Source: Moniliella sp. 'wahieum' (lineage: Eukaryota). From it: 64,000 nt of DNA. Positions 2,263-58,709 of this stretch are shown piece after piece; the stretch's first letter is position 1, and the number at the start of each line of letters is the position of its first letter. Below the pieces are notes generated by a model that worked only from the letters and a program-made list of their open reading frames with translations, made no database searches and had not been told where the DNA came from. The position numbers were made by a program, and so were the translations under genes. The DNA lies in assembly GCA_003971905.1 (NCBI GenBank), contig RSEE01000011.1, forward strand, positions 62,001 through 126,000, in the 5' to 3' direction.

Positions 2263-5200
2263 TCAAGGCCGGCGCAGGACGGAGCGGAAGCAGGCAGAGG
2301 GGGCACGCACCAGTAAAATGTGCTCGGCAAAGCGTAAAAAGCGTTTGGCGTATTCAAGCGGAGTGATCTGGCCAAGAGTCAGTTGGGATGGGTGTATGAA
2401 GACGACGCTACAAAAGCCAAACGTACCACTGTTGGTTCCCCGGCCGGGCCAATTAGGCCAGTACCTTTCATGAACGTTTCCACTCTTTCCTTCCATTCGT
2501 AAGGACGAAAGTAGTCTGGTCGATGGGCGAGGATCCCCCCAAGTCAAAGTCAGCACATCAGAAGCTTACACATGCTTATTAGCCTCAACGGAGGGGGGGG
2601 GGCGTACCGACAATCCCAACAACCAACTCTTGCGAAGTGGGAGCAACGCCAAGAAGAAGTGAGTAGTCCATCATCCCTTGTTGGGCCAGGAAGTGCGCGT
2701 CGTTGGAAAGAGCGGAAAAGAGGTGGTGTTTGCAGTGCTCTGTGACAAACAGGGGCTGTTTTTCTGGTGCCGCCAGTGCAGCAAAGTTGGCATCAGTAGG
2801 ACTGTTCCTTTGGCTGCTGGTTCAGGGGCGACAAAGCGGTTGCGCAACGACCCCTTGAGATCAAACACTGTCTCCACCTCGCCCGGGACTGAATTGGAGG
2901 AGCCGTAGCGGTCATCATCAGAGGTGACCTGCCGGCCGTAGAACAGATCCTCCATCACGAAACAGTCAATATGCTCGTGTTTGTGCAATGGTCCCTCAAA
3001 CAGCTCCACTCGGAACAGGCCCAAGACGCGGGCCAAGGCCGAGGGGTGGGCAGGACGGTTGATGCCAAGGCACGTGGCCAAATGGGCAAAGTACGCGGGG
3101 GCAAAGGTGGTCAAGGCATTGAGCTCGGTGCGAGTGAGAGTTTTGATGATGAATCGTCGGTCCATCGAGCGGTAGAAGGAGGCATTGGACTTGCCCCCCT
3201 TGGCCCTCCACGGCTGACACCGTGCGAGCGAAGCAACAAACGCATCATGTTCGATTTCTACCGCCTGGCGCAGGGCAGCAAACTGTTCGGCATAAAACAC
3301 CCGGATAATCAAAAGCGGGGCGCCCGGTGCATCGAACTGGAACCGCATATGAGTGCCTGTTGGAGTACGCAATGTGGCACCCAACCCGCCCTCACTTTGG
3401 TTCCACACCGACGGATGGAGGCGCTCCATCTGCAACGCGTACTCATCGCTGCTGAGAGTGAGAGCGATGGCCGAGATGGGCTCCTTGCTCCACAGGGGCA
3501 TCGAAGCTTGGGGAAACAAATGGATCCCGCGCAATGGCCGGTCCAATGGCGCCAGACGGTCCGAAGCTGATCCCCACAAGTCAGCCAAACTGCGAAAAAA
3601 GACCGTTCTCTCTCTCCTTCCTCCTCCACCGATGCCCACGATTGGCGTCCCGATTCCACCTCCCTCTTCGCCGTATCGCGAGACAAAGGGGCGGGCAAGG
3701 AGAGGGCACGTGAATTATCCAGTAGGCGCGAAGCAGCGGGCACATCAGTACTCGTTTCCGGTTCGGACACGGATTCGGCTTCCGACTCAATGTCTGACTC
3801 GTCCCACGTCGAGTCAGACAGAGCTTCATCGACATCACTAAAGACGACAACTTGGGTGTTGCGACGACGCCGGGCCCGTGCACGGGGGTAGGGATGCAGG
3901 TGCAGGTGCAGGTACGGATAAAGGTGAAGTCCTGCAGGCCGACCAGGGCGCTGCACTGCTGCCGTACGCACCAGAGCAAGCGGCGTCGCCGGGTCGAGAG
4001 GAGAATGGATGAAGAGCGACGGGCTTCGAGAGGAGGGCGGTCGCGAGGGACCCGGGGCATAGGTGGGGGCGAAATGCTGGCCGAACCGGACGGCTGGCGT
4101 GGTTGGGAAGTCGAAGAGGCAGCAACCTGTTGCCCCGGTGGCCCTGGATAGGGAACCGAGCGAGCGCGGGCGCGACCCTGGATCGGGTGGGTCACAATGA
4201 TTCCGAAGGCGCCCGACCGCCCGTCTCGTCCGTTGAGCCGCTGCAGCTAGGGTGCAGGGAGGAGGGATCGCAAGATCGGCTGGTGCCGGGGTGCTGTCTG
4301 GCGAGGGGGATCGTGCCAGAGAAGGCAGGTTCCACATTCCTAGGCCACTGGCCAAAGACAGCCGATGGCGCCACTCGTTGCGAGGAAGAAATTCAGACTC
4401 GTATTCGGCCAGGCGTCCCTCCCATTCGTCCGCCTCGGTCCCCAGCTCCCGCCAGAGGGTTAGTACAGCACTCAGATCCGAAGAAGCGAGGAAACGACTG
4501 TGCATCGTCCGGAAGAGGGATTCCTCTGCCTTCAGCAGGTCTGTCAAAAGCCTCGCCCCATTCAGGGCGGCCCGAACGCGCACCTCCGTCTCGGACCCCT
4601 TTTCGGCTTCGGCCATCAGGGTATCCAGGCGCGCTCGCGCACTGTCCCACCATGCTGTCGCACGAGACAGAATGTGGGCCAGCTCATCGATCCGCCTGGA
4701 ATGTTGTAAGTCGGCTCTTGGGACTAGCCTAGCTGCCGGGAGGTCACTTCAAATGTGACGAGAGGGGATACCGAGTTCAACCTTGCGACCACGGCAGACA
4801 AAGAGATGCATGCCCAAGTGAGAGCAATGAAGCGGTGGGCCATACAGAGCCAGCAACACGACTTGGGTAAACGAAAGGGAGCGTTCGTCTCCCAGACGTT
4901 GCATGTCGGTACTGCGGTGGCATAAAGGGCAGGTATGGCATCGGAACACGGAAGCATCAAGTGGCGACCCCGACGGATGTCCCGAGACTCGCACATCCAC
5001 TCTCTTGCCAGCATGGAAAACGTAGTTGTGTGCTCCCCCCCACGGAACGGCAAGTGGGCAGGGGTAGTGGCTAGATCCGAGATGGCCCGAGCCAGACACT
5101 TGTCCCCCTCTCCGTACAGCGTAATTTCGACCCAAGTTGGGGCCGGCACTGACTCTCTTCTCCCCCGCCACGGTGCAAGTGACGAGCTGCATCCAGATTA

Positions 5201-7270
5201 GCTTTTCACAGGGCAATGTAGGCAGAGCCCCCTCCGTACGGGATTGATACTGGTTCCATGCTTCAACTTGTTGGCAGACACGGTTGGTCAAAGTGGTCAG
5301 TTCCACTTCAGCTATGCGCTCGTCCGCTTGAGCACCAGCATTGGAGAGGCGCATGCTCTGAAGTATCGATTCGTGTTCCAAACCCGTCACTCTTCCTTGT
5401 TGTTGTTGTTGTTTTCCCCTTTGTATCAAAGGGCGGAGGGTGCATAATCGTTTGCGCACAACCGCCAGTTCATGCGACAACTTGACCAGCTTTTGAATGG
5501 GTTGGGGCGGGGGGATACGAATGGTACAAGAGAGATGTGGCCCCGTCAACATACTGGGATAGGTACGCCGGATGGAGGGTAGAAGGGAGCGGGACGAGAT
5601 GCTGAAGGGCAAGAGGGCGGAAATGTCGCAGGCAGGCGGACGCGAGCCTGAGGGGTGTTGGGGAGATTGGAGGTTCTCCAAACTTGTTCCATACGAAGGT
5701 TGTACGCCACATGGGCCACTTGGAGCACATTCACCAACATACTCCAATCGTCTCAGCGAGCTGGGCCGATGAGAAACGAGCCAATGGAGCTTTGGTTGAG
5801 CTTGCCCTGCAGTTTCATCAATGCCAACGCTCGGCCCGCCCCCACCGACGGGTGCAGCATAAAGTCCTGAACATCAAAAAATGTCGCTTGCCCAACAACG
5901 TGCGAAGATTCCAAGGCACAAGTGGACACAGTAATCGCGGCGCCAGTACACTGCCTAATCGCATCCAGTTCCGAGGCGGTACAGCCAGGCAAGAGCGCCA
6001 CGCCCGTTCGCTCCAACTGGTCGACCACCCATCGAGACACCAGGCCTGAACCGCTAATGACGAGATGAGGTTGTGGGAAAGGAGGGCACGAACAAGGTGG
6101 CGCAAGTACGCATCTTCTTCCCGTTGTACCGTCGCAAGGTCCACCACCCCTGCCTCGTCTCCCAAATAGGTCAAAGGGAAAGAAACGATGAGCACACGGG
6201 CCGAGGAAAGAGGCAAGAAACGACGCATGCCCTTGGATGCCACATCCCTGAGCGCCACCACGCCTTTGACATACCGTACCCCGGCGCGTCCAGGAAGGGG
6301 AAGCACGCGAATATGTTTCCGCAGATCCATTTCGCCATCCTCAGGGTCGAGCTGAAGACGGGCATTCGCTTTGAGCGCTAGCTGGACCACCGTCTCTCGC
6401 CAGCTTTGGTGCGAGCCCAGTAGCTTGGCGGCATACGACCACAGGTACGTCCTTTCCTCTGCCCCAAGCGAAGGAAGAAGGGGGCTGAGAGGACTGATGA
6501 GACGGGTGGGAATCGGCACATCTTGCTCTTCATTTTTGGTACTCGGACAGGGGTGCCGGATGGCACTCGAGAGTAAGGAGACGGGCACCTTTCTGGCTCT
6601 TCAGGCGCAGCTGAAGCCGAGAGATGATCGTAATTTTGGGCACAGGCAACGCATACACGGGACCGGGCAGGGCCAGCAGGGTGATAATGTGGCGCGTGGC
6701 GCTAGTGCACGATGCACAAAAGATGCTGCCACATAGACGGCAATCTGCACCGGCAAAATGGACATGTCAGAATTCGTGTCGGGTAGATTGGGAGGTACTC
6801 CCCCCACAAAGCACTACAGGCAGAAGTGGGGTATATAAACGAGACGTACGATGGCGCCGGCACAGTAGGTGGAAGGCACGCTCGCAGCGTGTACAGGCAG
6901 CGGCTGCCTTGTCGGGCATCCAGTTGGGGGGGGGCTGGAGATGACTGACTCAGTGTCATCGGTGTCGGGGTCATGGAGGAAGGTGTGCCAGGCAGGGACC
7001 GTGCGTGCTGGTGACGGTGGCGCAAGGGATGGTGAAAGCGGCAGCTGCGGTCGGGGTTGCCGACGTTGAGGTTGATGCGATTGAGGTGGAAGCTGATCGT
7101 GCGCGTGAGGCAGCAGAAGGGGGGGCAAATCCGAATCAGGATGGGTTGGTGGGCAGCGGCGGGAGGACGAGAGCATGCCAGAAGGCGGTGAACCTGCTGC
7201 GAGTCGCTGCGTTGTTGCGGCCTGGATCGCACGCGGGAGGTTCGAGGCCAAAGCTTACCAGCGATGCCAT
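2263..7270 (-). CDS. FAB1: 1-phosphatidylinositol-3-phosphate 5-kinase Fab1/PIKfyve (FYVE, CCT-like and PIP5K domains); multiple frameshifts, ends approximate
   Basis: FYVE-type CRLCGSIFCASC at ~6700-6745; CCT-like block (YVKGVVALRDVASKGM, EEDAYLRHLV); kinase motifs GGKSNASFYRSMDRRFIIK, FDLKGSLRNRFV and ITPLEYAKRF. Start ATG at 7270 is a guess. Confidence 0.85.
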
Positions 7271-7741
7271 GCGTACATGCGCAGTGGTGAAGAGGGAAGG
7301 CAGAGCTGGAGGTGGGAGGGCGTGGAGTGGTGTGTTGGTGCGAGGGGGGGGGCAGCATATGACATGGATTGGAGTATGCGACTGCGAGGGATGCCTTGGG
7401 TAGCCCAGTGAGTATACTCTCCGTAGGGTGCGGTGCTATGGCAGAAGGTGTGGGCGTCCACTGCATGATCGATGATCACACCTCGGCTTGTCAGGGCACA
7501 TTTCAGCTCGCTCGCATTTGGGCTTTGCACCCGACTGGGAAAGCAGCGCACAGGGCAGCGCTTGCCCCCTCGGCATTCGCTGGACGTACTATAATAGTGA
7601 GCGCCCAGGCGCTCAGGCCGCCTCACTTGAGGCCTCAGGCTGAGCTGAGCCCTCCGTGGGGTTATCTTGCAGAGTGGCTGTGACTCGGGACTGGGATGGA
7701 ATAGCAGGCTGTAGCGTGCTGTAGCCGGGTGCCCATCCGCT

Positions 7742-7765
7742 TGAAGCTTGAAGCTTGACGCGTGA
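7742..7765. repeat. TNA/4-bp-palindrome run TGA-AGCT-TGA-AGCT-TGA-CGCG-TGA
   Basis: Direct reading; upstream of FAB1. Confidence 0.85.
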
Positions 7766-8186
7766 CGAGCTTGAGTAGCTTCCTGTAACAGGAATCTTTT
7801 CAGCTCTTCAAGCTCTTTAAGCTTCAAGCGGCGCTGCCCGCACAGTCCATCCAAGCGATCCCACCTTGCCGGCTATCGACCAGTGACTTCACTTTCACTA
7901 GTGACCTAGTGACCTAGTAACCGGCCCCCCCTGACTACGGCAGACCCTGCCCGCCGCACCTTATCCATGTCGTCCAGGCCACGCCAGCTTCTCTCGATCA
8001 ATCTATCTATCACACGCCACGCGGCAGCCGCAACGAGTAGCTAGCAACTAGCAACGCGTATAGTAGCGGCTGCAGCGGCTGCAGCATGAAACGGCTCTTG
8101 CGTTTTGAACGGTCCGTTTTGCATTTCCCATTCCAGGCCAAGCACGTGCCATTTGCTAACGGTACTGATACCCCCGCGCCCCACCC

Positions 8187-9213
8187 TCAGGCAAAGTATT
8201 CCGGCAGTAGGAAGCTCAGGTTCTTCTTGGCCTCGGCCGGGATGGCGTGCGGTTTGGTAACAATGGCAAACTTCATGCTGCCCCGCAGCGCCTTGTTGGA
8301 CGCCGACTCGGGATTGGCCGCCTCGGCATGCACCGTGTCCAGCACTCCCAGCACCACTTCTTGCGACGCAACCACATTGTGCTGCAGCACCGCCATCACC
8401 TGCTCCACCGTCACCGCGCCCTCGTGCGCCCGCCACGCATCGTAGTCCGTCGCGGTCGCCACCAACACATAGCCCAACTCGGCCTCGCGTGCCAGCTTGG
8501 CCTCGGGCAGGACGGACATGTTGATAATGTCGCCGCCCAGCTGGCGGTAGACGTTGCTCTCGGCCCGGGTGGAGAAGGCGGGGCCCTCCATGCACACCAC
8601 ACACTTGTCCCCGTGCACCTGCACCTCGGGAGCGGCTTGGCGAGCACCTGGCGCAACTTGTTCTCCACCAGCGGACGCAGATGCTCGTCAAACGGATCGC
8701 CAAACATGGCGTGGGCCACGACCGACGACTCGGCCCCGTCGCCAAAGAACGAGGCACGGCGGACCCCCTTGGTGCGATCGAGGATCTGAGAAGGAACGAT
8801 GAAATCCTTCGGACGCACCTCCTCCCGCAGACTGCCCACGGCCGAGAAGGCGAGGATGGTGCGGACACCGAGGTGCTTGAGGGCGGCAATGTTGGCCAGG
8901 GCTGGCACCTTGCTGGGCGGCACCTCATGGGCTACGCCATGGCGAGCAAGGAATGCAATGTGCACGCCGCTCGGCAGCTTGGCAACCGTAATGGGCGAGC
9001 TGGGCTTGCCCCAGGGCTAGATACGAGGCAGAGATGGTGGTTAGTGCACGATGCTACGCCTGGGGGGGACGGAGGTGAGCCAGGAAGGGCACACACGGTA
9101 TCAGGGTGCACCTGGGTGACAACCTCGACGCCGCGAAGGTGGTAGAGGCCAGAGCCGCCAATGACGCCCACGCGAACGCCGAGCTGCTGCACTTGAGCGA
9201 CGGAGAGGGCCAT
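8187..9213 (-). CDS. MEU1: S-methyl-5'-thioadenosine phosphorylase (MTAP); one intron at 9017-9096
   Basis: VGVIGGSGLY, IAFLARHG, ANIAALKHLGV, MEGPAFSTRAES, INMSVLPEAKLAREAEL, TDYDAW; intron GTGTGT...CTAAC...TAG on the - strand. Confidence 0.93.
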
Positions 9214-9845
9214 GGTGAGGATGGTGGTGGGGGGCTGGAGCGAAAGCGCACGTGAAGAAAAAAGTTGAACGCGAAGACAGGCAATGGGTACAGCCAGCCA
9301 CAAGCCGCACGAAGCCCTGGAGGGTAGGCTTATTGCAGGTCTCCCGCCCAGCGGAAACTGCGCGCGCAAGCCGGTATGCCGCGGGTACGGGCGGAGGGCG
9401 GAGATAGCGGGGACTGAGTACTGACGCGACGGGGAAGAGGCGTGACGCGTGAGTGGCAGCACTGCAATTTCACTCGGGGCACGTGATCGGGGGGGTTGGG
9501 GGTTAAATGAGGGGGTGGTGACCAACACCTGCAGGCTGCAAACAGGAAGCGGGGGTTTAATGACCCTGCTGCGGCCCTTGGGGTGCTCTGGGGGCGGGAG
9601 AAGCGGCAGGAAGGACACAGACAGAGCACCCGCTCCAGGCAGGCCGCAGGCACTATCCCACACGCCCCGCCGCCGCGACGAGCACAGCGCCGCATCTCAT
9701 GGCCGCCACAGACTCCCACCCTGCCTCCCGCAATTCCCTCGTCCCACAGCGCCCCAGCACAGCGCCTCGCTTGCCTCCTCCAAGCACCACCCCGTCGCAC
9801 CGCCCATCCCGCTCCTCTGCCCCACCACCACCACCTCCTACCACC

Positions 9846-13871: not shown

Positions 13872-16452
13872 GTTCTCATCTCAACGATGGGGAAGAGGCG
13901 AGAGGCGCACGCCGACCCCCCCCCAGAGCTAAGGCTCGTTTACTTCTCCGGTTCGTGGGCCCTGTTCTGTGATCCGGTCGTATTGGATTGTGGTGTTTCG
14001 GGTAGACGGGTGTCGTGCCAAAGGCTGCACAGGGAGATGGGTGGAGCAGATAGTCGGCGAACAACACACGACAGAAAAAAATAGCATTTTGAAGATAGAA
14101 TCTGGCCCGGGGTGCTATTCCTCTGTCCTCTTTGGCGGTATACCCGTACTATAGACTGATGCCTGTGGTGCTTGCTGTATATCTGGGTTGTAAAGTGAGG
14201 TACTCGCATGTGTCTGGGCTTCTGTGCTCGGGCAGGGGTCAGATCAGAGACTCCTGACCACAACAGAGCGGCAGTACCTATTACACATCCCAGATGGATT
14301 CATCTAGGACGCTCACGACGTTTGATACATTAGTTCAAGCTTTAAGTCCTTCAAGCCCTCCTCCACTTTCTCCCCCCCGCACGTCCAAAACTCCGACGAG
14401 GGTTGCAGATCCCATACAGGGTTCCCCCTCCGATTAGGGTGTACACTTCTGACCCTTTAATTGCAACCAAAAACTCCCATCCGCCCTCAAGCTTCAGCGT
14501 CAGCACCCCAGTGCACAGCTCCGCTTCCGCCCTCTCCGTTGTGGGACTTCTCTTAGCTCGCTTGGGCGTATGGACTTTGGCCCCTACCTTGGCCAGCGCC
14601 TGTGTGTCGCGTACTCTCCCCGCAAGTACACCATCCTGAACAAGTTGCCTGCCGTGGGCGCTCGTACTGGATGCTTGCGACGGATGCCCGGGATTGGCAA
14701 GTAAGAGTTGGCCTGGCAACTGGCTGTCCAAGGGGTCCATCTGCTCCTTGCCTCGGGCTCCCCTTCCAAGCTGGCTACAACAGCCTGAGATGGAAGTCGC
14801 CACACCCTCTTGGCTCTCATACAGGGGGATGATGTGGGCCTCGGAGCATTGATGTACTGATAAAGCGACCGGACGCGTTTACAAAAAGAGCTCTTTGGGA
14901 AGGAGTTACCATCAGGCGCTATAATTAAAGGATGCCTCCCGCCCCGCACCTGATGTGTATCAGACTGAGACGCCGTACTAGAGGGCCCTTGGGCCACTAT
15001 AGGCCCGTATGGGCAGGATCGCGGTTCTGATCAGTTGGGTGACCCTGTATCCACCTCTCGACTATGCCCCCTTCCAGTTAGGAGGGACTTATACCTCCAG
15101 CCCATCCGTAGAAGTATCCACAATCCATCTGCTCCTCTTTCCTCCATCTCCTGTTTCATCCCGAAGACAATATGTGCATCATTTGAGGCTTGAACGTTGA
15201 ACGTTGAACATCTCATAGAACCTCCCTCATACGCGGGCATGGGACAAGGAACACGCGAACACGGGAGGATAGGCAAGCCGGTTTTGGATGGCAGTATAGA
15301 AGAGCGACTGAAGCGTTACGGAAGGCGGTATGGCCAGGTCTGGCCAGCGGGCACAGCCTGCCATTCCTCCCTTAGTCACTAGAGCCACTAGTCACACAGT
15401 CCCTAGTTGCAAGGTTACGGATGCGGTTAATTATAAGTGCCTTACTTACTGCACCGGCGGGTCCCCGCAGTGTACCCGCGCCGCGACGCTCAACAGCCTG
15501 AACCTCCATGCCGTGCTCCACGTGCGTGGAACGTACAAGGGTCAGGGTCAGGCTCAGGCCGGCCGATCAACCTCGTCAGCGCCGCCAGCAGACGCCAGCG
15601 CGCTAACCTCTGCCAACCTCGACCGACGGTGGTCGCGCCCGTGAGAACTGAGGCCATGAGGGCCTGAGGACCGAGTCGACGATCATCGATCACCATATAC
15701 CCGCCGCCGAGGTGTGGGTGGATAGGATGGGTTCCCACTGCCCCTACTGCGGCGAGCGTGTGCCGGGTTATGCATTATGGAGCTGCTCGTGCGAATCTGT
15801 GGCGCTTCCGGCAGGCGCGCCCCTTGCCGGAGTCGGGGTGTCGGCATGTGCACGTGACGTGTGCGGGTGCGCGCATGCACGCAGCCAGAGTGCCTCCGTC
15901 GTGCTGGGCGCTGCTAGGCACTGCGACGCACTGCAGCGCCCCCGCTGGCCACACTCGCCGGCTGCCGGGGCCACGCGGGTCACATGCCGCAGGCCGCATG
16001 CTGTGCGGCTTACGCCACATGCCAGATGCCAGTGCTCACCGCCCAGGAGCCACCTAGCCCTGGTCACCAGCGCACTAGCCCACTGTACCCACTGGTCACT
16101 GGCCACTGACTATAGTTAAACACGTGCTGCTCTGGAGACCTGATGGTACTGAGCAATCGTACGCCTGCATTATGGGAAACTGCTGCCTGCTATCGCCTCT
16201 CCTCTCCGCCCAGTCGGGCATCGTTGCCCGCACACACACATTGACAACATTTTCCCCGCTTCCTTCTGCCACTCCAACCCCCATCAACGCCAACGTTCAA
16301 CGTATACTCTCAACCCTTCCCCTTGCGCCTGTTTTCAATCCATCCACAACGACGTGCCTCCCTCGCTGCCCTCGGTGCCCAGCTGGAGCACCCCTTTCAC
16401 CACCGTTCACTCCCGCTCCAACCACCACTACCATTCGCAAAGGGCAGCTACG

Positions 16453-17481: not shown

Positions 17482-18910
17482 CCTTTGTTTTTGCCGCGGC
17501 ATATACCCACCTGTCTTCGTGCACGCCTCGACGGACCCTTCTCACGCGTCTATGACCTCGATGACGGGAATACCTCTTCACATCCTAATCCCCGGCTTTT
17601 TTGAGCATATGCTTATCATCTCTGTATTTTCACTTGTCCCACACCTTTTCAGTACATCACCAGTACATGCATTATGACTATTTACCATCACTATCGTTCG
17701 CCACTAATCTTCCTTGCCCCCACTATTACCTATACCAACATGCTATATAGCTCTACGTTTGTGTTTATTATTAGCTGTTCTGTTACCCGATCATACCCTT
17801 TCAGACGCACACTCCCATTTTTGTCGACATAGCTATGTCAGACTCACGCCATGCTAGGGGGCCCCAGGCCCACTATATATAGGCCCGAATGGGCACTATG
17901 GTGCATGATTCTCTTCATGTTAGGAGATCTTGTGTCCACCTCTCTATCGACTCTGCCGCCCTTCCTTCTGAGAGGTACATGTATCTCCAGTCCGTCCTTA
18001 GATGTATCCCCTCCATTTCCTCCCTTTCCTCCATCTCACGTTTCATGAAGAGCGAAGGGCAAGTACGGCTCTCTCTCTCTTTTGTGTCTCGATCTTCTCC
18101 GACTGCTACATCTTGTCCCTTTATCGGCGAGGTTCATATCTCAATCTCACAGCTTATATGCTGGTTTAATCAAGAGAGACCCGTGCCAGGTGATACGGCA
18201 AGAGCTGCATTTGGGCATATCCCCCGCATCAACTGCGTCAACGTTCAACGTTCAACCCATTAGTATACCGTCCTCTCGGAGAGATATATCAAACGTATTA
18301 TCTAGTCTCGGAGAGCGCTCGCGATTATTATAAGGGTGACTGTGCGGCATGCGATGGATGCACCATTGCCTCTCCTGGTGTTACGGTGTGAGGCCGAAGT
18401 TTTCCTGGCTGTACATCTGTTATGCCGCAGCACTCGGTATTAGTGCCACCCCGAAAGTGTTTTTGGCAATAATGAAGGGGTCTCTTGTGGGTAATATGAC
18501 CGAGAGAGTTGTATTTTTTCGGAAACTAAAGGTGCCCCTTCCTTCTGCCTTTTTACAGGGGCTTGCTTCCTCATGGCTGCCCGCGCAAGCTAGTCTGTGA
18601 GGATCAACTGTGCTTTCGACTTTTCACAGAGAGCGATGAACTCTTCGTCGTTGATGAGACGACGTACAACGCGGTGAACGCGTTGTCTCTTCCGCAACGC
18701 TTGGCGTGTCAAACGCGCAATATGAAAGTTTCCAGTTCTGGCCCAAAGCAAACAGCGGAAATACCACTGCTTAATTCCGCGCTTCGCCACCATCGTTGGG
18801 CACTTCAAACTGCCTCGTGCCTGCGGTAGATGAGATCGGCCACACCTCCACCCCGCACCATCTCGCCACCCCTTCCATCCTTCTGTCTCCTGCCATCCCC
18901 TGCGTAGACG

Positions 18911-20020: not shown

Positions 20021-21087
20021 TGTCGGGGTGGATGGCGGGGGGGAATGCACATTCGCCCAGTTGGGTGACCACAGTTGTCTGTGGCCATCTTGCCTCAAAA
20101 ATGTACTTGTTGCGCGAAAGAAGGGCTGGGGCCGATTGCTACACATATACTACTGCAGACAACCAATGTTTTCTAGAAAGGTATGGATTTCAGGAGCGGA
20201 TGTCCGACAAGCGTAATGACACGCCAACCCATGACGTGTGCAAGCACACGCGGGCTAGGTGCAAAGTGATGCTTGGCGAGCATGTTCTGGGCCACGCATG
20301 AAACTCGTACGCCAGTAGAGAGGCTGGCGACGAGCGATTAATGGGCCCATTACCTGTCCTCGGCACAGAAGAGAAGAAAAAGCAACGACAACGAGAAGGT
20401 TAGCAGTGTGTGCATTCGACATGCATTGCGATGCACTGGCTTGGGCTTGGTGGGAGGGTGGGCGGGGGGCCTGGATGGCCGAGGCGAGCGTGGTGGTTGG
20501 ACAAAGAAACAGAACCGGCTTGTTCAAGCTGAAATAAGAACAAAACTGGGCAGCCTCCACCGCGGAACGAGGCGCGGAACTGCATCACGTGCTGCTGCCT
20601 AAGATGCATGGGTCGTGTTCGCTAGGGTTAAATGGCGGGAGATGCAACTTTCAAGCTTCAAGCGCCAAAGACACTGATGATGTCATGCATACACTGCCCC
20701 TGCAGCAGGGCTGGAAGCCTGAATAGTGACTGCCCTTGTGCTCGCTCGCTTTGTCCAGATACAGGACCAGTGTCGCATATCACTCGCAGGCCTTGCCTTG
20801 TGCCCGTGCATGCCGGGGCCGGATTTGTCAGGCCCACAGGCCTGAGCTCAGGCTCAGGCTCAGAGGCTGGACCCATGCATTCGGTAACCGGTAATCGAGA
20901 AACAGGCATCATGCATCACTCATCAGCGGACATCAGTGCATCAGCTGCCATGGCCTGGCCCCCCTTCCCACCGCTTCCTGAGCCCGACCACCAGCAGGCT
21001 CAATCCACTCGCCTCCCTCCCCAACCTCGTTTCTGCATTTTCCCACTTCTCCTCGTCTCTCCTCAAGCGACTTACCCCAACGAAAGA

Positions 21088-29428: not shown

Positions 29429-30201
29429 TTGATTATCTTCCCACCGTGGTTCTTCCCTGATTGATGGACAGCGGTCCTGTTGACCGTGTCCAGCCTGGAA
29501 GAGCATCAGGGGGCGGGAGGTGGAAGAGAGAAGGAAAAGGGGCTTCTATCATCCCCTTTTCCCTCCCTCCCCCGCTTTCTCTTCTCTCTTTCTCTCTTTC
29601 TCTCTTGCCCACGTGCTACATGGACTGACAAAACTCAATTTTCAATACTCATAATCATCCCACTGTATCAGGCACTTTCTCTGCAACGAGTCGTCTTTCC
29701 CTCCCCTCTAGATCGCGTCCATTTCATTGACAGAGCTTAAAGCTGGGACAGGGGGAACGCTACGTCTAAACCTAACCGTTCATCTTGCGGGGGTTACTTA
29801 GGGGCGCCACCAGGGTCGAGGAACCAGGGGGATCGCCAGGATATCAGGACCCTCCGGTTCTCGACATCCGGTCCCATACCCTAGGAAGCGCGTGTGGACA
29901 CGGATGAAAGTGGTTGACATCCGAGCGAGAAACCATTTCCACTGAGACTTAGTAGCCAAATCCTTCCAATGCGCAAAAACAACTTGCCCGCTGTATAACA
30001 AGGAAAGCCATCCGGCCATACAGGCTTCCAAATTATACACGCTGTTTTTGTCAGTGCAAAGGCAGAGCATAACCCTAGCGACCGGAAAATGCCCCTACGG
30101 TATATGAAACTTTCGTGTGGTAGCTTGGGCTGCCGTTGTGTGTGCCCATCGTCTGCGACGATTGATTGGCTTTTCCTGTACCATCACCTTACTCCTCCAC
30201 T

Positions 30202-48083: not shown

Positions 48084-49006
48084 GGCGGCTGGTGTGGTGG
48101 TAAGCGCGGGAGGGGGGCAGACGAACGATCAATCGATCAACGTTCAACCCATAAGGGTTCATCCTGAACGGCAAGGCTGGCCTGATCAAAGGCACGGTGG
48201 CGCTTCGGCTTTGCCCCACACTGAGGCGCCGGACGGAGCCGAGGGTTACGTAAAGCCGCCGCTGCCCCCTAATGCATTTGGGGGAGGGTAGGCGGCCGCG
48301 GAGCTGGGTGCGAGACTTGTGTGGCCAGCCGAGCCCTCCGCCACCACACCGCCACCACAGCCGGGTCGGCCGGAATGCATAATTGCGCAACCGGATGCCG
48401 CGCATGGCCAGCGCCACGAGTGGCGTGCCAACTATCGAGTTCCCACGCTTCCTCTGCACCTATGGGAACGTGGAAACCATATCGAATTTCGCCTCTGATC
48501 AGTATCACTTGCAACAACTACTAGTAGGTTGCCCTCTCAGAACAATTGCCGTTAACCACCACCAGGGGAATATTGGCCACATTCCATGCGGAGAGATAAC
48601 TAGGTGCTTGGCCCTGGGGACATGCCCCTTAGCACTCGCGCGCTCCCCGCACTTTACTGCGACATGTAGCTTGGGCGCCTATGGACCCGATTACGAATGG
48701 AGAGAAGGAAAAGTACAAAAAGGGCTTCATTCAGGAGTGTCCCGGTAGGAAGGAGGGGAAAATGAAGGTTGCCTCACCTCTGCAGATCAGAGACCGGCAC
48801 GGATCTCAAAGACAGGGGGTGAGGGCGATGGGGTAGTCGAGGGGTAACTTGTAAACTATGATGGAAGGAAAAGTCGCAGAAATGAAGGTGACATGAAAGG
48901 CGTAAAGGGTGAGTCGAAGCGTGGGCGATAACGTGAAGGACCACGAGGAGAGAACGAGGAACCAGACCGGGGAGATATGGAAGACCGTGACAAAAAAGGA
49001 AGAGGA

Positions 49007-51032: not shown

Positions 51033-54000
51033 CGGGCAAAAGCGGCGGAGCAGGAGTGAGGGGCGGTGGGGAGAGGGCATGCCAGGTGGGGGATGACGGG
51101 GGATGGCGGTGGCGGTGGAAGTGGTATTAATGCACACGCGAGATAGGAAAACAAGAGGGCGCTTCTAATGTTGTGGCGAGGAGGGAGATGGTCCACGCGC
51201 GCGCGTGTGCGCGCAGGCGCGTACTAGCACAGTTTTTTTCAGCATCCCAAGCAAGCGAGTGCGGTTTGTGGGCGTACGTGCCATGTGAAATCTGAGATTC
51301 TAAGATCCAACCCAGGCTGGCCTCTGGCCCGTGGCCCGCTCGGCTAGACGTGGGTTTTGTAGGGCGCTGCACTGTGTTGCGGTGGGGGGTGTCTACCCAT
51401 CGACTTCTCAGCACCGAGCGGGACCATCGATCGCCATCGACCATCACTAACTGCATCACGGCCATCGTCAACGTAGTTCAACGAGTTCAACTGGACGTTG
51501 GATTCAATGTTCAACCGAACGTTCAATATATTCAACCCCCCCGTTCGACGGCCGAGGAGCTGAGGTGGGGCCGTGAGATGCCTGGCGCGTTATTGGTGAC
51601 GGCTCGCTGAGGGGCAGCGAGTCATCGATCATCGCATCAGAGCTCAGCCTGAACAACGCAGACGAAGCACGCGGTGGGAGTGTTACATGTTACTAGTTGC
51701 TGCTTTCGTCCTTGCCACCGGCACAAACGTCGTTCATATCACTGGCCAACTCGCATCTACCCGCTGTTACTCGCTGTCAGCGCCAGCTCAGCACTCGGTC
51801 CTAAGTTTTCCCTCTATTTTGCCCATGAAAAGCTTGAAGATAAGAATCGTATTGACTCTCCATTTGCCCTTGCCTGTCGTCTCCCAGGCACCGAGGCAAC
51901 GCTGAGGAGCTGAGGCCCATATACATACCGCATACAGGCTCAGCGCTCAGTGTGAGCCTCAGCCGCACTCAGCAGCCGCGGAACGCGAACCCCACAAATG
52001 GGGGGACTCGAAGCTTGGAAAGCTTAAGCTATTGTAAGGGCTTGAAGATAGCACTCTTATCATTCGTAAAAGCTTCAAGCTTCAAGATAAAAGGACAAAG
52101 GAAACGCCGTGCGCCACTGCTGCTGCAGCACTTATATCAGAAGAGGCTCTTCGCTCATGCAGCGTGTACAGCTATAATCCGTGCCCCCATATCCAAGGAG
52201 GCCGAAAACAGTCGAGGAGAGTCATCGCCAGCAGGTGAGGCCACCGCTGCCCTCTCAGTGACTCCCCCCATTCTTCGCTCCCAAGAGGCCGAATGTATAG
52301 CGCGAGTGGATGCGAATGAGCGTGGTAGACATGTGTACAAAGCGATAAAAACAAACGATAAAGGGTCTCCAATGATATAGATTCTTCCCGTCGATCAGTA
52401 TGCGTTTCTGTAAAGGAGGTAAAGGAGGGTGTCTACGGTTTAGACAGCACTGCATTCGCCCTCCGTCTTTGCAGGGGGGCTAGAACACTCCACGGCGGCG
52501 ACCGGAATCCGGCTGGTTTGATCACAAGCCAACAGGAAGGTTCACATCAGCGTTGCCCGAACGAGAGATCCATTGGCTAGATGCACCAGCTACCAGCATC
52601 AATAACAAGTTTGGTTTTGACATTTCTACCTGGACAACACTGCCGATCAAACGAGCTTAACATTCTGCGTATCCTCGTTCATCGTCTTGGCAGCGCAGAT
52701 ATGACGTTGTTTCTGTACAGGTGTGACTCCACTCTACTTTGCATTTTGGAAGCATAGATAAGTAAAGTTCAACAGTAAAAGTGTTAAAACGACCCCTTCT
52801 TTGTCCTAGCTTCTCCCTCTCACAAGAGACTTGTCGGCACTGCCACCTCCTCTTTCTTTGGACAGCTGACAAAGTAACTAAATGTTCAGTGTAGATTCGG
52901 TCGAGGCGACGATGTGTTCTTGACGATGAGTACTTCAAACGAATTGTAACATCTGCTTCTCAAAGCTCAAGCGAACCGGCGGAGAGAATCCTGGATTTGG
53001 CGCATGCACAACCAGTTGCACAGAAAAACAAAAACGGCACGTCGTGTCTCTTCCTTATCATCTGGATCCAGACCAGCATCTCGGAGATCGCGCAGTCGAC
53101 GAAAGTGGGAGCGGAAGTCTGGGTTGGCCTGGACCGACGACACCATCGTTCGCTACTGCCGCTGCCCTCAACGTCCTCAACAGCTGTTGCAAGTGGCGTA
53201 GAATCGGATTTGGGAGCGAAACGGTGGCTAAAGAGTTTGGGTTGGCTCGCGCTCCCAAATTGGGAGGCGTTCGTTCAACTTCACCTGGATGGTTTCGGCA
53301 AAGAGATCATCATGATTGCGATCAGCTCAACCAACCCGTCGAGCGACGCTCTGTCCCTTGGCTACGCCAGCATCGAAAGGTCACGGTCATAATTCTGTTC
53401 GCAAAACGCGTTGGCCAATGACTTCACTCGCATCTCCGCGGTGGTCGCGAGCACGTACGCGTCATCTTTGTGGATGAGAGGCACAAGATGTAGCTCGAGA
53501 AGTAATAGAGCACTCGTTCCTCCACAGACCAAATATACGCGGTGCGGGCAGTGCAGTCAAATTGTCGGAGTAGATGAAAAGATGGAATTCAAGACCAGCA
53601 TTCGCCCGCTCTGCGTCCAGCGCTATCGTGAAAGAGAGAAGTATGTGTTTGTTCGACAGAATCCGATCCACTGTCTGAATAAAGAAGGCGCTTGGTTCCT
53701 CAAAGTTCTATGCTCGGAATCCCAGCGGGTGAGGGTTCATCAGTGGTCATGTGGTGCTTTTGCCGCCTACCACCCAAAAAACGAGTTCCTTCTCTACTGC
53801 GAGTTGCACAGGAGGGCACACCACAGTCCTTGTGAGGGTTGTAAATATGCTGCCCGAGCGATCGAATCGACTTTTGACCCAAGTGACTGGCATCAGTTTC
53901 TCCAATGTATGGCTGAGCAAATCCGTTCTCATCACTTCGGCCCAAGCCCTATACAGTAATGCAAGGTGACAATCAATAGAGAGGGGCCGCTCCCCAAAAG

Positions 54001-55223
54001 AAGTCAGCCCCGAAGCGAGAGCCAACCTAACCTTGGGCTGACGAAAACGCCTGATATGCTGATGGTATAGCGAAGAGCTGCGCGTTCTGAACCACAATCC
54101 CAATTGTCTTCTTATTGCTAGAGTCGATGGCTGTCAATAATGCGCGGCGAGGGTGAAGTGATCCAGAGCGCCATAGGCGGATGACTACATCCAAGTCCTC
54201 ACCGAGGCAACAACAATTCGAGTGCAATTGCTGGGAGATTACGTGCGATGATATACACAACTCCCTTAGTTCACCAAATGACTTTAATGACTGACCGTAC
54301 CTCTGTGGCTCCAAATTGATCTTGGTTGCATTCCACCCTACGCCCGAATGCTGTGGTTTACTATTCGAGCGGTTTCTGATGGCTTCCAGGCTATATAACT
54401 GGCATCGACCCCAACTTTTCTGGACGTTGATTTCCCCCGTGTCGGCACCCACCTTACCACTCACCGCCTCCACTTCCTCCCATTATAGGCTCTGTATTTG
54501 ATGGTATTTTTCCTAAAAGGCATAATAACTCGATCTCCCCTCTCATTTCCTTCGCCTCCCCGCGGTTCATGAAATGTTTGGTACAAGATACTGAGCCGCT
54601 TTGTGCATAACGAATACCGACCACTCACCCTCTCGAGTGGCATGAGATGCCCGCAGCTCTTCTAGTATGGTAGCTGTCTCCTTGCGCGTAATATAGAGAT
54701 GAAACAAAGAGAAAAGATGATTGAAAGTCATCGAGGGCGAGAGAGAGAGGATTCGAGGGGTTGAGCTTCAGGGCGCTGGTTGAGAGATGATCGCCATCGA
54801 TGCCCAAAAATCGATAAGCGATCGCGATTAAAGCGATCGTAAACGTGTAAACAAAACGATCGTTCCTGATGCATGATATGCATGAAGGCATGAAACGTGC
54901 ATGAACGTTGAACACGTTGAACGTTGAACGTACTGAACGTCGATCGAGAAACTCTCGATTAACGATCTATTCAGACATAACGTTAAACGTTAAACACGTT
55001 AAACGGTAATGCTTAAAGCCTTTAAGATGCTGTTAAAAACGATAAAAGAACGGTATGCGTTAACGCGTTAAGCTCGTTAAGGCCGGCCTTTTAGGCTACC
55101 TAAGCTTGGCTTTGAGTCGTTAGAAATGGTATTACGTTGTGCCGCTGGCGATTCCCAGTTTCAGGTTACCGATTAGATCGATTGTCGATTATCGATTCGA
55201 TTATCGATTATCGATGTACCTGG

Positions 55224-55258
55224 CACATGTCACATGTCACATGTCACATGTCACATGT
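55224..55258. repeat. (CACATGT) x5 perfect 7-bp tandem repeat, i.e. TCA-CATG units
   Basis: Direct reading; contains four overlapping GTCACATG. Confidence 0.9.
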
Positions 55259-58200
55259 CATGCACATGTTATACCTGCGGGCAGCTGTGCCGGCGGAAGG
55301 AAAAGATAGTTTGCTGTGCGATGGGAGTATTAGCACATGTAATACATACCTGGGATGGCGCAATGCTAGGCGCTGTGCACTGGGTGGGGGGAGGCGGTAT
55401 AAACGACTACTACTTCAAGGAGAACGAGAAAGAAATCATCGGAGTATGTAGTCAGTACGTCCGAACTCAGAATGCGGAGTACAGTGTACATGGATGAATC
55501 GATGAGCGCTGAGCCAATGATTAATTTATCACTACGCCGCGGCTACTGTAACGCGTGACGTATGGCCTGTGACACATGTGGCGGCCGTTGACAACGTTGA
55601 CATGGTACGTTGACACGTTGACACGGGAGTCCCTAAGGCCTAAGGCCTAAGGTCCTAGTTTGTCCCTCCTGCCACCGGGAATTGGTATCGGCCAGGGTAG
55701 GAAAATTGGCGACCGAACGCATCGAACGTTGGACGTACGTATACGTTGAAACACTGCCCCATCGATCATCGATATGGGCTTTCGTCTTTACATAATTCTA
55801 GCACTGCTCTACCGCGAACCCGTCGACGGCTGTCTCAAAATTTACGCCTAACACGATCATTGCAGCGCCCGCCGGCATGTGCTGAGGACAAGGCCGCATG
55901 CCACCTGTCACACTCAGTGTCACCGGTCACATGTCACATGTGCCGGTGACCGGCGACGCAGGGACGCAAACAGAACCTGTGACAGGTGACGTAGGTTCTG
56001 ACATGCGACATCGCGGCTGACATCGACAGAGCTGCATGCCGTGTGCGCCACGGTCTCGTATTTGTTTACCTGCTCTCGCCATCAACGTCATCTATCACCG
56101 CGTCATCGCCCAAGTCATCATGCATCCTTGAAGCTCAAGCTTCACGCTTCAAGCTTCACACCTTCATGACGCAGTCTCCAGCTCATCAGATGGGCTGATG
56201 TCAAAACTCGATGATCGATCTTTTTCGTCGTTTGGGGACGCAATCTTATATTCAACATGCAGCGCCATATAGCGTGTTGCCGAGCACACAAATATTCAGC
56301 GGGAGCACACTAATCATCTAGTGCTCTCGGCGCTCCCTCAGCGCCTCGGCACAGTCGCTCGCCATGAATACCGAGCGTACTGAGCGCTGAGTAGGTCCAG
56401 CCTGAGCGTGGGTCTCAGCGCTGAGTACCTGAGTATGAGACGCGCAATACTCTCTATGTGTTCAACACAACGTTCACCATTACTTTCTATGTTACAGAGC
56501 CCACCAATCGGGTTCAGACTGGAAGCTGTCCTCATCGATCGTGACAAAACTGGTAACCAAAAATAGACGATGGGGATTGATTGCTGATGAGCGAAGATAG
56601 TAAAGAGTTGCGGTGAGGGAGGGAGGAGAGGAGGAGGATGGAGTGAAAGAGAGGGAAAAAAAAACTAAGCTACGATTGCCGAAGCTTCGAGAAGGAGGCA
56701 CGTCGGACTGTCGGACTTCCCCCGGGCGGATGTAGCGGAGCTAGCTGACGGATGGAAGTGGTTGGGAACGTCGGAGTCCGGCTATACCTGGCACACTGCA
56801 CTAGTGTCCCAACGACACGCGTGCCTCGTCGTAGTCCGCATCACACGGAGCGCCTCTCCCGTGCTGTTACGAACAGAGGATCATTAATCAGTAATCATTA
56901 ATCACTATACACAAGCGCCAGAAAGTAGGGCAAAAAGTTTTTGTAATTCAGACAGGCACGATCGTCGATGGCGTATCGAAGCCGAAGATATTGTGCGTGG
57001 AACTCCGCCCCTCTGCGCTGTCTTACATTTCGTCCGTATTGCCTGCTCCCCGGTCCCCCGTCCCGTGGGCCTGAGATTTTGTTTGGAAGACGAAGGGGGC
57101 ATTTGAGTTTGCGGGGGGTGATGTGAAACTCTGCAGCGCTTGTTGAAAAGCCTGATGTACATACTCATGCATGATGCATGATGCATAGGGCCTAGGGTGC
57201 AATATGTCAGCCTGAGCATCCTGAGGGCCTCAGCCTCAGGGGCCAGGATGGGGTTTTTGACATATATTTTAGTAACAAAAACGCGGCAAATTTTGAAGGC
57301 TGGTGGGGTTTAACATGTAACAATGCCTAGGATACGAGACAGGGGCTGGAGGCTGAAGGAACCTTCGTTTTGGTGCCTATGGTACGTATCAGGCATCGTG
57401 CGCATCATGCAACTTACAGTACGGCCGACGCAACGTCTATTGCACAGGCTGAGCCAGTATTATTAAATTGATCGATGATCTAAAACTAATAAATAAGGCT
57501 GCCATAGTCGGGGCAAAAGCAACGAGCATGGACTCCCAGAAGTACACTTCAAGGAGAGAAATGACTTGGTTTGTCATTCACTGGCGAAGCCTGATGCCTG
57601 AGGCCGATGAGGTCTCAGATGGAAGTTCGCGCATTAGGCACGGCAATAGGAAGGGAGCGGAGGAAGGATTGCCAAATTGTATCAAGAGACCCGTAGCAAA
57701 GCCTATATAGGGACCAAAAAGGCGGACCTTTTATGCTAAGGGCGAAAGGGAAAAACCAGTTGAAGGTGCCTCGGTTCATGTTTTCTTCTTGAGCCAACTT
57801 TACAGCGTAGGGATAGTCTGTCGACGCCGACGCCCTACTTGGCGGACGAAGCGGACAGGGGGATCGCAGAAGGTGGGGTACGAACCCCCAGGAACCGGGC
57901 GTCGGATTGCTGAAGTGCAGCGTTGTGCAGACCCAGTACTCAGGACGCCTCAGATCCCCCAGTATCTCAGTAATACTTAGTACCCCGGGGCAAACAGTAC
58001 ACAGTACTCATCTCAGAGGCTGAGCTCAGGGCGAGGTCCTCTACAGATGATATAACTTGTGGACATGTGACATGTGACGTGGGACAGTTGACAACAAGGC
58101 GAAACAGCCGTACACCGATCGCACACCGGGTATCATATACGTGTACGTACTCAGTAAAGACACCCACCGGATCCACCATCCATCGATCATCTTGATCGCG

Positions 58201-58709
58201 GACACGCCCATGTGCGTCTGCGACAGACTAAGACTAGACCCCGGCCGTCTGCGACAGACCACAGAATAGCCCCCATCATGCATCCTGCATCTCATGCAAC
58301 ATGTCACAGTGCGCCACCACTAGGCATGTGAAATGGGGCAGGGGCAGCGCTAAGCTTAAGCTTTACGCAGCACTGCCTCCATTTCGGCTGGACCGCTGGG
58401 GATTCGGTCGTGAGCGCATGATCGATGATCGATGATTGGCTGTCCGGTCTTCCGGTGACCGGGACGCCATGACGCGGTGACTAGTGACTCCGCCGGGGAG
58501 GCCAGTGCCCTCCAGCGCCTCAGCGCTGATGCATGACGCATGCTTGATGGCCCTGCAGAGTGAACGGCGGGCTGAGCGGCTCCGCGCTGAGGGAGGCCTC
58601 CAGATCCGGTGCGGCAGGAGCTGTCAGCAGCCCCGTCTTTGCCTTAAAAGACAACACACACCGCCTACCCGCCCCTCCCTCCCCCGTGTTTCCCCTCCCA
58701 CTCGCCATC

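Follow-up and report, generated by a model that had tools for sequence, protein, structure and literature searches.

The locus and its copies

The window is the whole analysed stretch of 64,000 nucleotides (C11:62001-126000), which lies on one contig of a 69.5-Mb assembly with 223 contigs. About 1% of the genome was read for the analysis. The FAB1-type PI3P 5-kinase gene is located at 2671..7270 on the minus strand, with a PF01504 match at 2671-3714 and a probable ATG at 7270-7268. The MTAP-type phosphorylase gene, recognized from its open reading frames and a PF01048 match, is located at 8187..9213, also on the minus strand. The scarred stretch described here runs between the stop of the MTAP-type gene and the probable start of the FAB1-type gene.

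This locus is present four times: on C11, on C28 (93%), and on C21 and C36 (86-87% in the coding part). The four copies form two close pairs, which suggests that the assembly combines two subgenomes or species, each with two haplotypes. The start region of the FAB1-type gene is kept in all four copies. Close sister copies were seen at every tested locus, including C17/C62, C4/C16 and C8/C23. For one window protein the best named relatives are smut-group fungi, with 67-72% identity. Housekeeping genes, including the one at 8187-9213, are broken over several frames, and 1259 one-base indels separate the haplotypes. Both are probably long-read errors, so calling a single gene copy "decayed" would be unsafe.

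Several other features were observed. The region 52000-58500 has lower GC, few genes and the peak density of the repeat units described below. At 29706-29994 lies the truncated 3′ end of a LINE-like repeat, which is dispersed and occurs in many copies among the fetched loci. Among the haplotype differences at 14385 and 18010-18039, C28 carries a 148-bp insertion opposite 14385 that looks tRNA-like by eye, as well as an LTR-like insertion of about 180 bp that is also found elsewhere in C36. Opposite 55214-55239, C28 has a 670-bp insertion that adjoins an ATCGATT array; it contains pieces resembling the internal repeats of the element described below, and a LINE-like 3′ end. No terminal inverted repeat (TIR) element with a 7-bp duplication was found in the large haplotype gaps near the window. 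Repeats of the first 264 kb were considered as TIR elements and rejected, as they resemble the LINE 3′ end and an LTR instead.

Palindromic spacers follow the flanks of a TNA site

The first-pass annotation listed ten stretches, starting upstream of the FAB1-type gene, in which TNA triplets are separated by palindromic tetramers. All ten were recovered at their positions, and the excess of palindromic spacers is real. Of the 176 TNA-N4-TNA sites in the window, 74 contain a palindromic spacer, where Markov simulations of order 1-4 give 5.7-9.0; ordinary palindromes of 4-12 bp show no or slight enrichment. Sorted by triplet pair, palindromic spacers occur at 63/108 sites with the same N, 7/27 with complementary N and 4/41 of the others; the excess therefore lies almost wholly in same-triplet pairs. 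It requires a 4-nt spacer and the T-N-A register; in other registers, same-N pairs gave 3/53 (ANT), 6/108 (CNG) and 14/155 (GNC). All 16 tetramer palindromes occur as spacers. One 17-mer of this type had 2280 matches in the genome and its reversed control had none.

Runs occur at about 0.8 per kb in the window, which extrapolates to about 57,000 in the four-copy assembly. More than one unit is carried by 126 of 665 runs. As this is above the level of random re-hits, hot spots or slippage must be added. A 24-mer of the finding had no match in prokaryote genomes and one match in metagenomes. That match (L163) is a bacterial-looking contig with two opposed heptamer arrays at 441-570 between genes; one arm contains the 24-mer and the second has non-palindromic spacers. 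The arrays are probably the product of an unrelated process. Since a bacterial array can hold the same 24-mer, a single run is not diagnostic and the case rests on statistics.

We write each 7-bp site as ab-TNA-xy. In a right-type unit the spacer is xy followed by its reverse complement, and in a left-type unit it is the reverse complement of ab followed by ab. At least one flank is fitted by 41 of 53 window runs (12% expected). What is inserted is the adjacent flank in reverse complement, as in a hairpin footprint, and this bears out the earlier suggestion that the symmetry is generated by reflection. Class counts were made in 264 kb on asymmetric sites only, where the two types can be separated; most of the 20 added stretches were chosen near AGCT arrays, so that density is biased and the rule is not. 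We counted 121 right and 91 left units of 7 bp, 19 and 13 of 8 bp, and 15 and 12 of 9 bp, against 0-5 per class for reversed but not complemented controls and 0-4 for other registers. The 8- and 9-bp units keep one or two extra bases of the other flank, and in the 9-bp class the complete 7-mer stands on both sides of two inverted bases. Retained targets of 5, 6 and 7 bp are thus all present, up to the length of the 7-bp duplication made by the element described below. Plain 7-bp duplications are no commoner in the TNA register (27) than in other registers (18-43).

Palindromes centred on the end of the duplication are even in 967 cases, against 8-26 in other registers. Odd palindromes of the Ac/Ds type number only 41 and 57 (8-84 in other registers). 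A minor class consists of 10-bp palindromes. A copy of TNAxy follows 40/214 of them in the TA register and 0/24, 9/152 and 0/124 in the others. Among single units, 104 of 539 mismatch the flanks on both sides.

Mixed runs, in which one palindrome gives way to another, were collected from 722 kb of unique 31-mers (n = 34). The first spacer copies the left flank in 26/34 and the last copies the right flank in 24/34, where a control with swapped flanks gave 2 and 1. Both flanks are matched in 17/34 and neither in 1/34. Two blocks are present in 32/34, and the two three-block runs are exceptions. As the first-pass annotation had argued, slippage cannot make such a switch: mixed runs, and first units too, differ from the adjacent 7-mer. 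Its proposed count of neighbouring units gave a divided answer. Palindromic neighbours are mixed in only 36 of 189 cases, against about 89% by hand calculation from unit frequencies if neighbours were independent of each other, and here the expected surplus failed to appear. Among 183 comparisons in which the unit next to a palindromic one was unlike it, that unit was also palindromic in 72, whereas random tetramers would give 1 in 16; in this form the expectation held.

In the FAB1-type promoter, the run at 7740..7767 has four TGA triplets separated by AGCT, AGCT and CGCG between the flanks CT and CG. It reads as the site CT-TGA-CG with two left and one right 7-bp unit, and its spacers match both flanks. 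C28 lacks the CGCG unit (window 7756) and one AGCT unit, and its right flank reads TGA-CA. At 7628..7639 a 5-nt inverted copy (7628-7632) precedes the site CC-TCA-GG (7633-7639). It is unchanged in C28 and is probably a long P-nucleotide variant. The site CT-TCA-AG at 7806..7828 carries a 9-bp and a 7-bp unit, read from the sequence and, for the 9-bp period, by TRF. Its middle triplet TTA (7817), which C28 shares, is probably a mutated TCA. At 7882..7922 lies the site AG-TGA-CC; it carries two 8-bp units (C+CTAG), with a pair of 5-nt inverted copies upstream. The unit at 7902 falls in the (1,4) class, and in the alignment with C28 the third triplet, TAA, reads TGA there. The parsing of the first-pass annotation needs correction here, even though its stretches exist. 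The TAA-CCGG at 7918 is no unit, as C28 has TGA-CC-G there; its C-CTAG spacers belong to the regular 8-bp class; and TGA-GGCC-TCA and TCA-GCGC-TGA form the separate 10-bp class.

Elsewhere in the window, left-templated 7-bp units lie at 9413..9426 (site AC-TGA-CG) and 9441..9454 (site CG-TGA-GT), and C28 has the empty site at both. The left-templated unit GG-TAA-CCGG-TAA-TC at 20883..20896 is also in C28, where its second triplet differs by one substitution. At 48127..48148 the empty site GA-TCA-AC is followed by an 8-bp left unit (A+TCGA) and a 7-bp right unit (ACGT). C28 has only the bare 7-mer (15-bp gap, unit 48129), so the window run follows from it by one 8-bp left and one 7-bp right event. 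The mixed CCGG/CATG run at 55918..55940, where C28 lacks 26 bp, breaks the left rule, as its left flank and first spacer mismatch. The 10-bp palindrome TCA-GCGC-TGA is followed by a GTAC spacer at 56415..56428 and by a TGCA unit at 58520..58538. Both are the same in C28, and we infer that the former belongs to the 5-nt inverted class.

Clean indels between haplotypes peak at 7 bp (5 bp, 16; 6 bp, 20; 7 bp, 36; 8 bp, 6; 9 bp, 10). Of the 36 7-bp indels, 18 fit a predicted allele; 4 of the 18 are at the same time plain duplications, and a few fit loosely. A stricter alignment-free test gave 33 fits, where seven controls gave 0-2; no fewer than 8 of these fits come from shared array units that match in both directions. 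When 161 unit sites were compared with the sister copy, 83 overlapped a gap (small assembly indels included), 67 were identical, 10 were non-palindromic and 1 had another palindrome. Paired compensatory change, which had been offered as a source of the switches, finds no support in these numbers, and mixed runs grow by whole units.

A candidate element and a model of excision

Searches with end sequences found about 20 ends of a TIR family with CTCACTG..CAGTGAG termini and subterminal short repeats, with copies on C29, C34 and C35 among others. Of six copies with both ends, five are bordered by an exact 7-bp NN-TNA-NN duplication directly outside these termini. TNA is in position at 19 of 20 ends, which are partly non-independent. 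Five 4.9-kb copies are 5-24 substitutions apart in 4400 columns and are therefore young and recently spread. Their transposase frames share breaks; C(2)C and H(3)H-like motifs were recognized by eye in the broken frames. No intact or autonomous transposase was found in the approximately 1% of the genome that was read.

Two of the copies have unusual junctions. The sixth two-ended one, a 4.9-kb copy on C11 (L069:2241-7089; C11:228241-233089), is flanked by two unlike NN-TNA-NN sequences, and the C28 stretch opposite does not align at the element region. This copy is possibly an element-linked rearrangement. At the C8/C23 element (L117:1499-1500 versus L118:1500), two additional bases separate the 7-bp target from the element end in one haplotype; they equal both the reverse complement of the flank and the first two bases of the element. 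An apparent inverted junction lies in C8, on the side facing the C23 element; it was discarded, not being that of the element itself.

The pieces of the element reading frames had no Pfam match and no homologue in a further search; only two weak matches were obtained (E 2.6e-4 and 6.3e-4). The best one, P0001 (E 2.6e-4), in turn matches a PF02992 locus on C34 at 1e-13, and its Atlas look-alikes carry DUF4218 (20%), Transposase_21 (12%) and Plavaka (11%). Through this two-step chain the transposase remnants look CMC/EnSpm-like.

One derivative of 378 bp on C20 lies inside an LTR, where a copy of one 7-mer adjoins it on each side; its counterpart locus on C22 is empty. At the same site in 94 other LTR copies, 89 are empty with one copy of the 7-mer each and four are scarred: one has a 9-bp right unit, one a right and a left 9-bp unit, and two a 7-bp left unit with one substitution. 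The remaining copy has an unrelated 3-bp insertion, and no simple GAT expansion occurs among the 94. This site fixes the polarity and brings element and scars together at a single target. Empty, occupied and scarred copies were seen side by side only at this paralogous LTR site, which provides the link; an allelic pair, the element on one haplotype and a scar on the other, was not encountered.

We consider it probable that the runs are excision footprints of a cut-and-paste DNA transposon that has repeatedly inserted and excised at the same sites. The agent is likely the CTCACTG-end family or its relatives. The element would insert at ab-TNA-xy and duplicate 7 bp, as observed for this one TIR family. 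On excision, each flank would be sealed as a hairpin at the very end of the duplication. A host nuclease would then open the hairpins 2 nt past the tip and leave 4-nt palindromic 3′ overhangs, as the products and the biochemistry of Artemis suggest. The left overhang would be xy plus its reverse complement, and the right one the reverse complement of ab plus ab. End joining that keeps one overhang whole, plus 0, 1 or 2 bases of the other side, would give the observed +7 (commonest), +8 and +9 bp classes. Because 4-nt overhangs on both sides of a 7-bp duplication would leave the 3-bp TNA core double-stranded, the register would be fixed. A model with a 5-bp duplication did not suit the 8- and 9-bp classes and was changed to 7 bp. 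A Tc1-like scar made from the two terminal bases of the element was also rejected: spacer content depends on the flank, and all 16 forms occur.

A scar has two TNA sites and can thus be re-hit. A left and a right event at one site would place two different palindromes in one TNA register with the left type first, which is the order observed in mixed runs. The gain of units in single steps is likewise observed. Complementary ab and xy would allow the two overhangs to anneal. As every scar creates such a site, homogeneous runs may be favoured; they may additionally extend by slippage, which could have the same effect and from which they are indistinguishable. Against the excision reading stand the missing intact transposase and the weak matches of its pieces, the few element ends beside so many scars, the missing allelic pair of element and scar, the C11 copy with unlike flanks, the single units that match neither flank, the 55920 run and the three-block runs, the surplus of multi-unit runs, the bacterial array with the same 24-mer, and the ends and duplication length published for CMCT elements.

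The same chemistry may have been carried out at most scars by another agent, such as a different superfamily with 7-bp duplications (hAT7, MULE-like) or a free-acting or host-adopted transposase, with which the CTCACTG family shares only the target. The small part of the genome read leaves room for such an agent, and both 7-bp duplications in hAT7 of rust fungi (PMC12730594) and flank hairpins in MULEs (PMC5499845) have been described. Nevertheless, we regard this as unlikely. Profile searches for hAT, KDZ and Harbinger (PF05699, PF18758 and PF13359) had no match, which weighs little as the controls of the first two had none either, and odd palindromes of the Ac/Ds type stay at background. A PF02992 transposase-like reading frame at L026:587-2751 (C17), with a copy on C62, has no TIRs nearby. 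Its 14, 18 and 16 substitutions at the three codon positions are even, which argues against purifying selection and gives it the look of a neutral relic. Two PF02992 loci were rejected as agent: no TIRs lie within about 10 kb and tblastn gave no significant match to the 4.9-kb element.

It is quite unlikely that the units arose independently of any transposon by template switching or fold-back in replication or repair, with the self-complementary TNA ends as microhomology. In its favour, element ends number about 20 and scars, by extrapolation, tens of thousands, a roughly 1000-fold difference; no active transposase was seen; and the product can be drawn as five bases forward, two to three backward and forward again. 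However, the same microhomology is available in ANT, CNG and GNC, where there is no excess. The full 7-mer repeated in the 9-bp class has the length of the duplication of the element, and element, empty site and scars share one LTR position.

Selection for symmetry, named by the first-pass annotation as an alternative to its generation, fared poorly. Protein-binding or cruciform palindromes kept by compensatory change would accord with the promoter location outside conserved blocks and with the single palindrome-to-palindrome haplotype difference. Spacers substitute at 14/312 positions and nearby flanks at 80/1367 (p = 0.41). Shared spacers thus decay about as fast as their flanks, and neither compensation nor selection is needed. 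Spacers are not conserved but follow the local flank in all 16 forms, units are often haplotype-specific, and the promoter of the other subgenome, though poorly alignable, lacks these runs. The slower or compensatory substitution and the retention in orthologous promoters that mark conserved cis-regulatory palindromes are therefore lacking in these comparisons. Outside the blocks conserved between subgenomes lie 26 of 27 runs, although these blocks contain 717 of 1866 TNA sites, as expected for frameshifting insertions. We find selection very improbable. An artefact of sequencing, amplification or assembly is scarcely credible, since for all the 1-2 bp indels and broken frames of this assembly the units avoid conserved blocks, 67 of them are identical in two haplotypes and some carry later substitutions common to two copies.

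Meaning and relation to known systems

With excision footprints as the preferred reading, an odd repeat pattern becomes a countable record of past transposition. The scars would bear indirectly on the cutting of a CMC-like element and on the point at which a fungal host opens hairpins. They would also provide a route to microsatellite-like arrays and promoter palindromes without initial slippage or selection. The FAB1-type promoter has the hexamer ACGCGT, which we take to be an MCB-like motif, in one haplotype only, and scars could create allelic regulatory differences of this kind.

More tentatively, an unclassified CMC-related lineage with CT..AG ends, a 7-bp TNA-centred duplication and RAG-type flank hairpins may frequently insert, exit and return to its own scars. 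It would be a main indel process in the non-coding DNA of this fungus, seeding 7-bp arrays and 6-bp promoter palindromes at about one site per kb while few copies are left.

The literature searched, mostly freely accessible main texts, contained no account of iterated footprints across a genome or of CMC elements with 7-bp duplications; such families might appear in the tables of PMC12730594. A direct study of the chemistry of CACTA excision was not found in the same literature either.

Flank hairpins are formed by hAT, Transib, MULE and RAG (PMC5499845). The hAT7 elements of Pucciniales are likewise fungal TIR elements with 7-bp duplications (PMC12730594). Here, no hAT similarity was detected, in a weak search whose control also had no match, and the footprint geometry is not Ac/Ds-like. 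The MULE Muta1 also makes flank hairpins on excision, but more than 90% of its excisions in yeast are precise according to the same account (PMC5499845). Ac/Ds in plants, S. cerevisiae and C. albicans leaves a duplicated target with short palindromic insertions and small deletions, by way of flank hairpins (PMC5873905). The complement of the border base forms the centre of its palindromes (PMC5873905), which are thus of the odd type that is at background here, and hAT duplications are usually 8 bp.

The CMCT clade comprises EnSpm/CACTA, Mirage, Chapaev, Transib, Plavaka and ESTA, as well as Lanisha (PMC12730594). The element resembles it in the TIRs with subterminal short repeats and may do so in the transposase remnants (by the two-step chain) and in putative C(2)C and H(3)H-like motifs seen by eye. 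CMCT elements mostly have CA..TG ends and duplications of 2-5 bp (PMC12730594, section 3.1); in Cryptococcus, CNIRT6 duplicates 3 bp and CNEST TA (PMC12810828). In contrast, the element here has CTCACTG..CAGTGAG termini, that is CT..AG ends with CAC from base 3, and a 7-bp TNA-centred duplication.

Compared with the P nucleotides of V(D)J recombination, the runs here are germline, genome-wide and far more stereotyped, have a 7-bp TNA target and are repeated at one site. The geometry, with its many even and near-background odd palindromes, is nonetheless that of V(D)J P nucleotides and not that of Ac/Ds. At V(D)J coding joints the hairpins made by RAG are opened by Artemis:DNA-PKcs, mainly at +2, which leaves 4-nt overhangs (PMC2175297). 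In both systems an even palindrome is centred on the untrimmed flank end, in keeping with +2 opening and a dominant 4-nt overhang.
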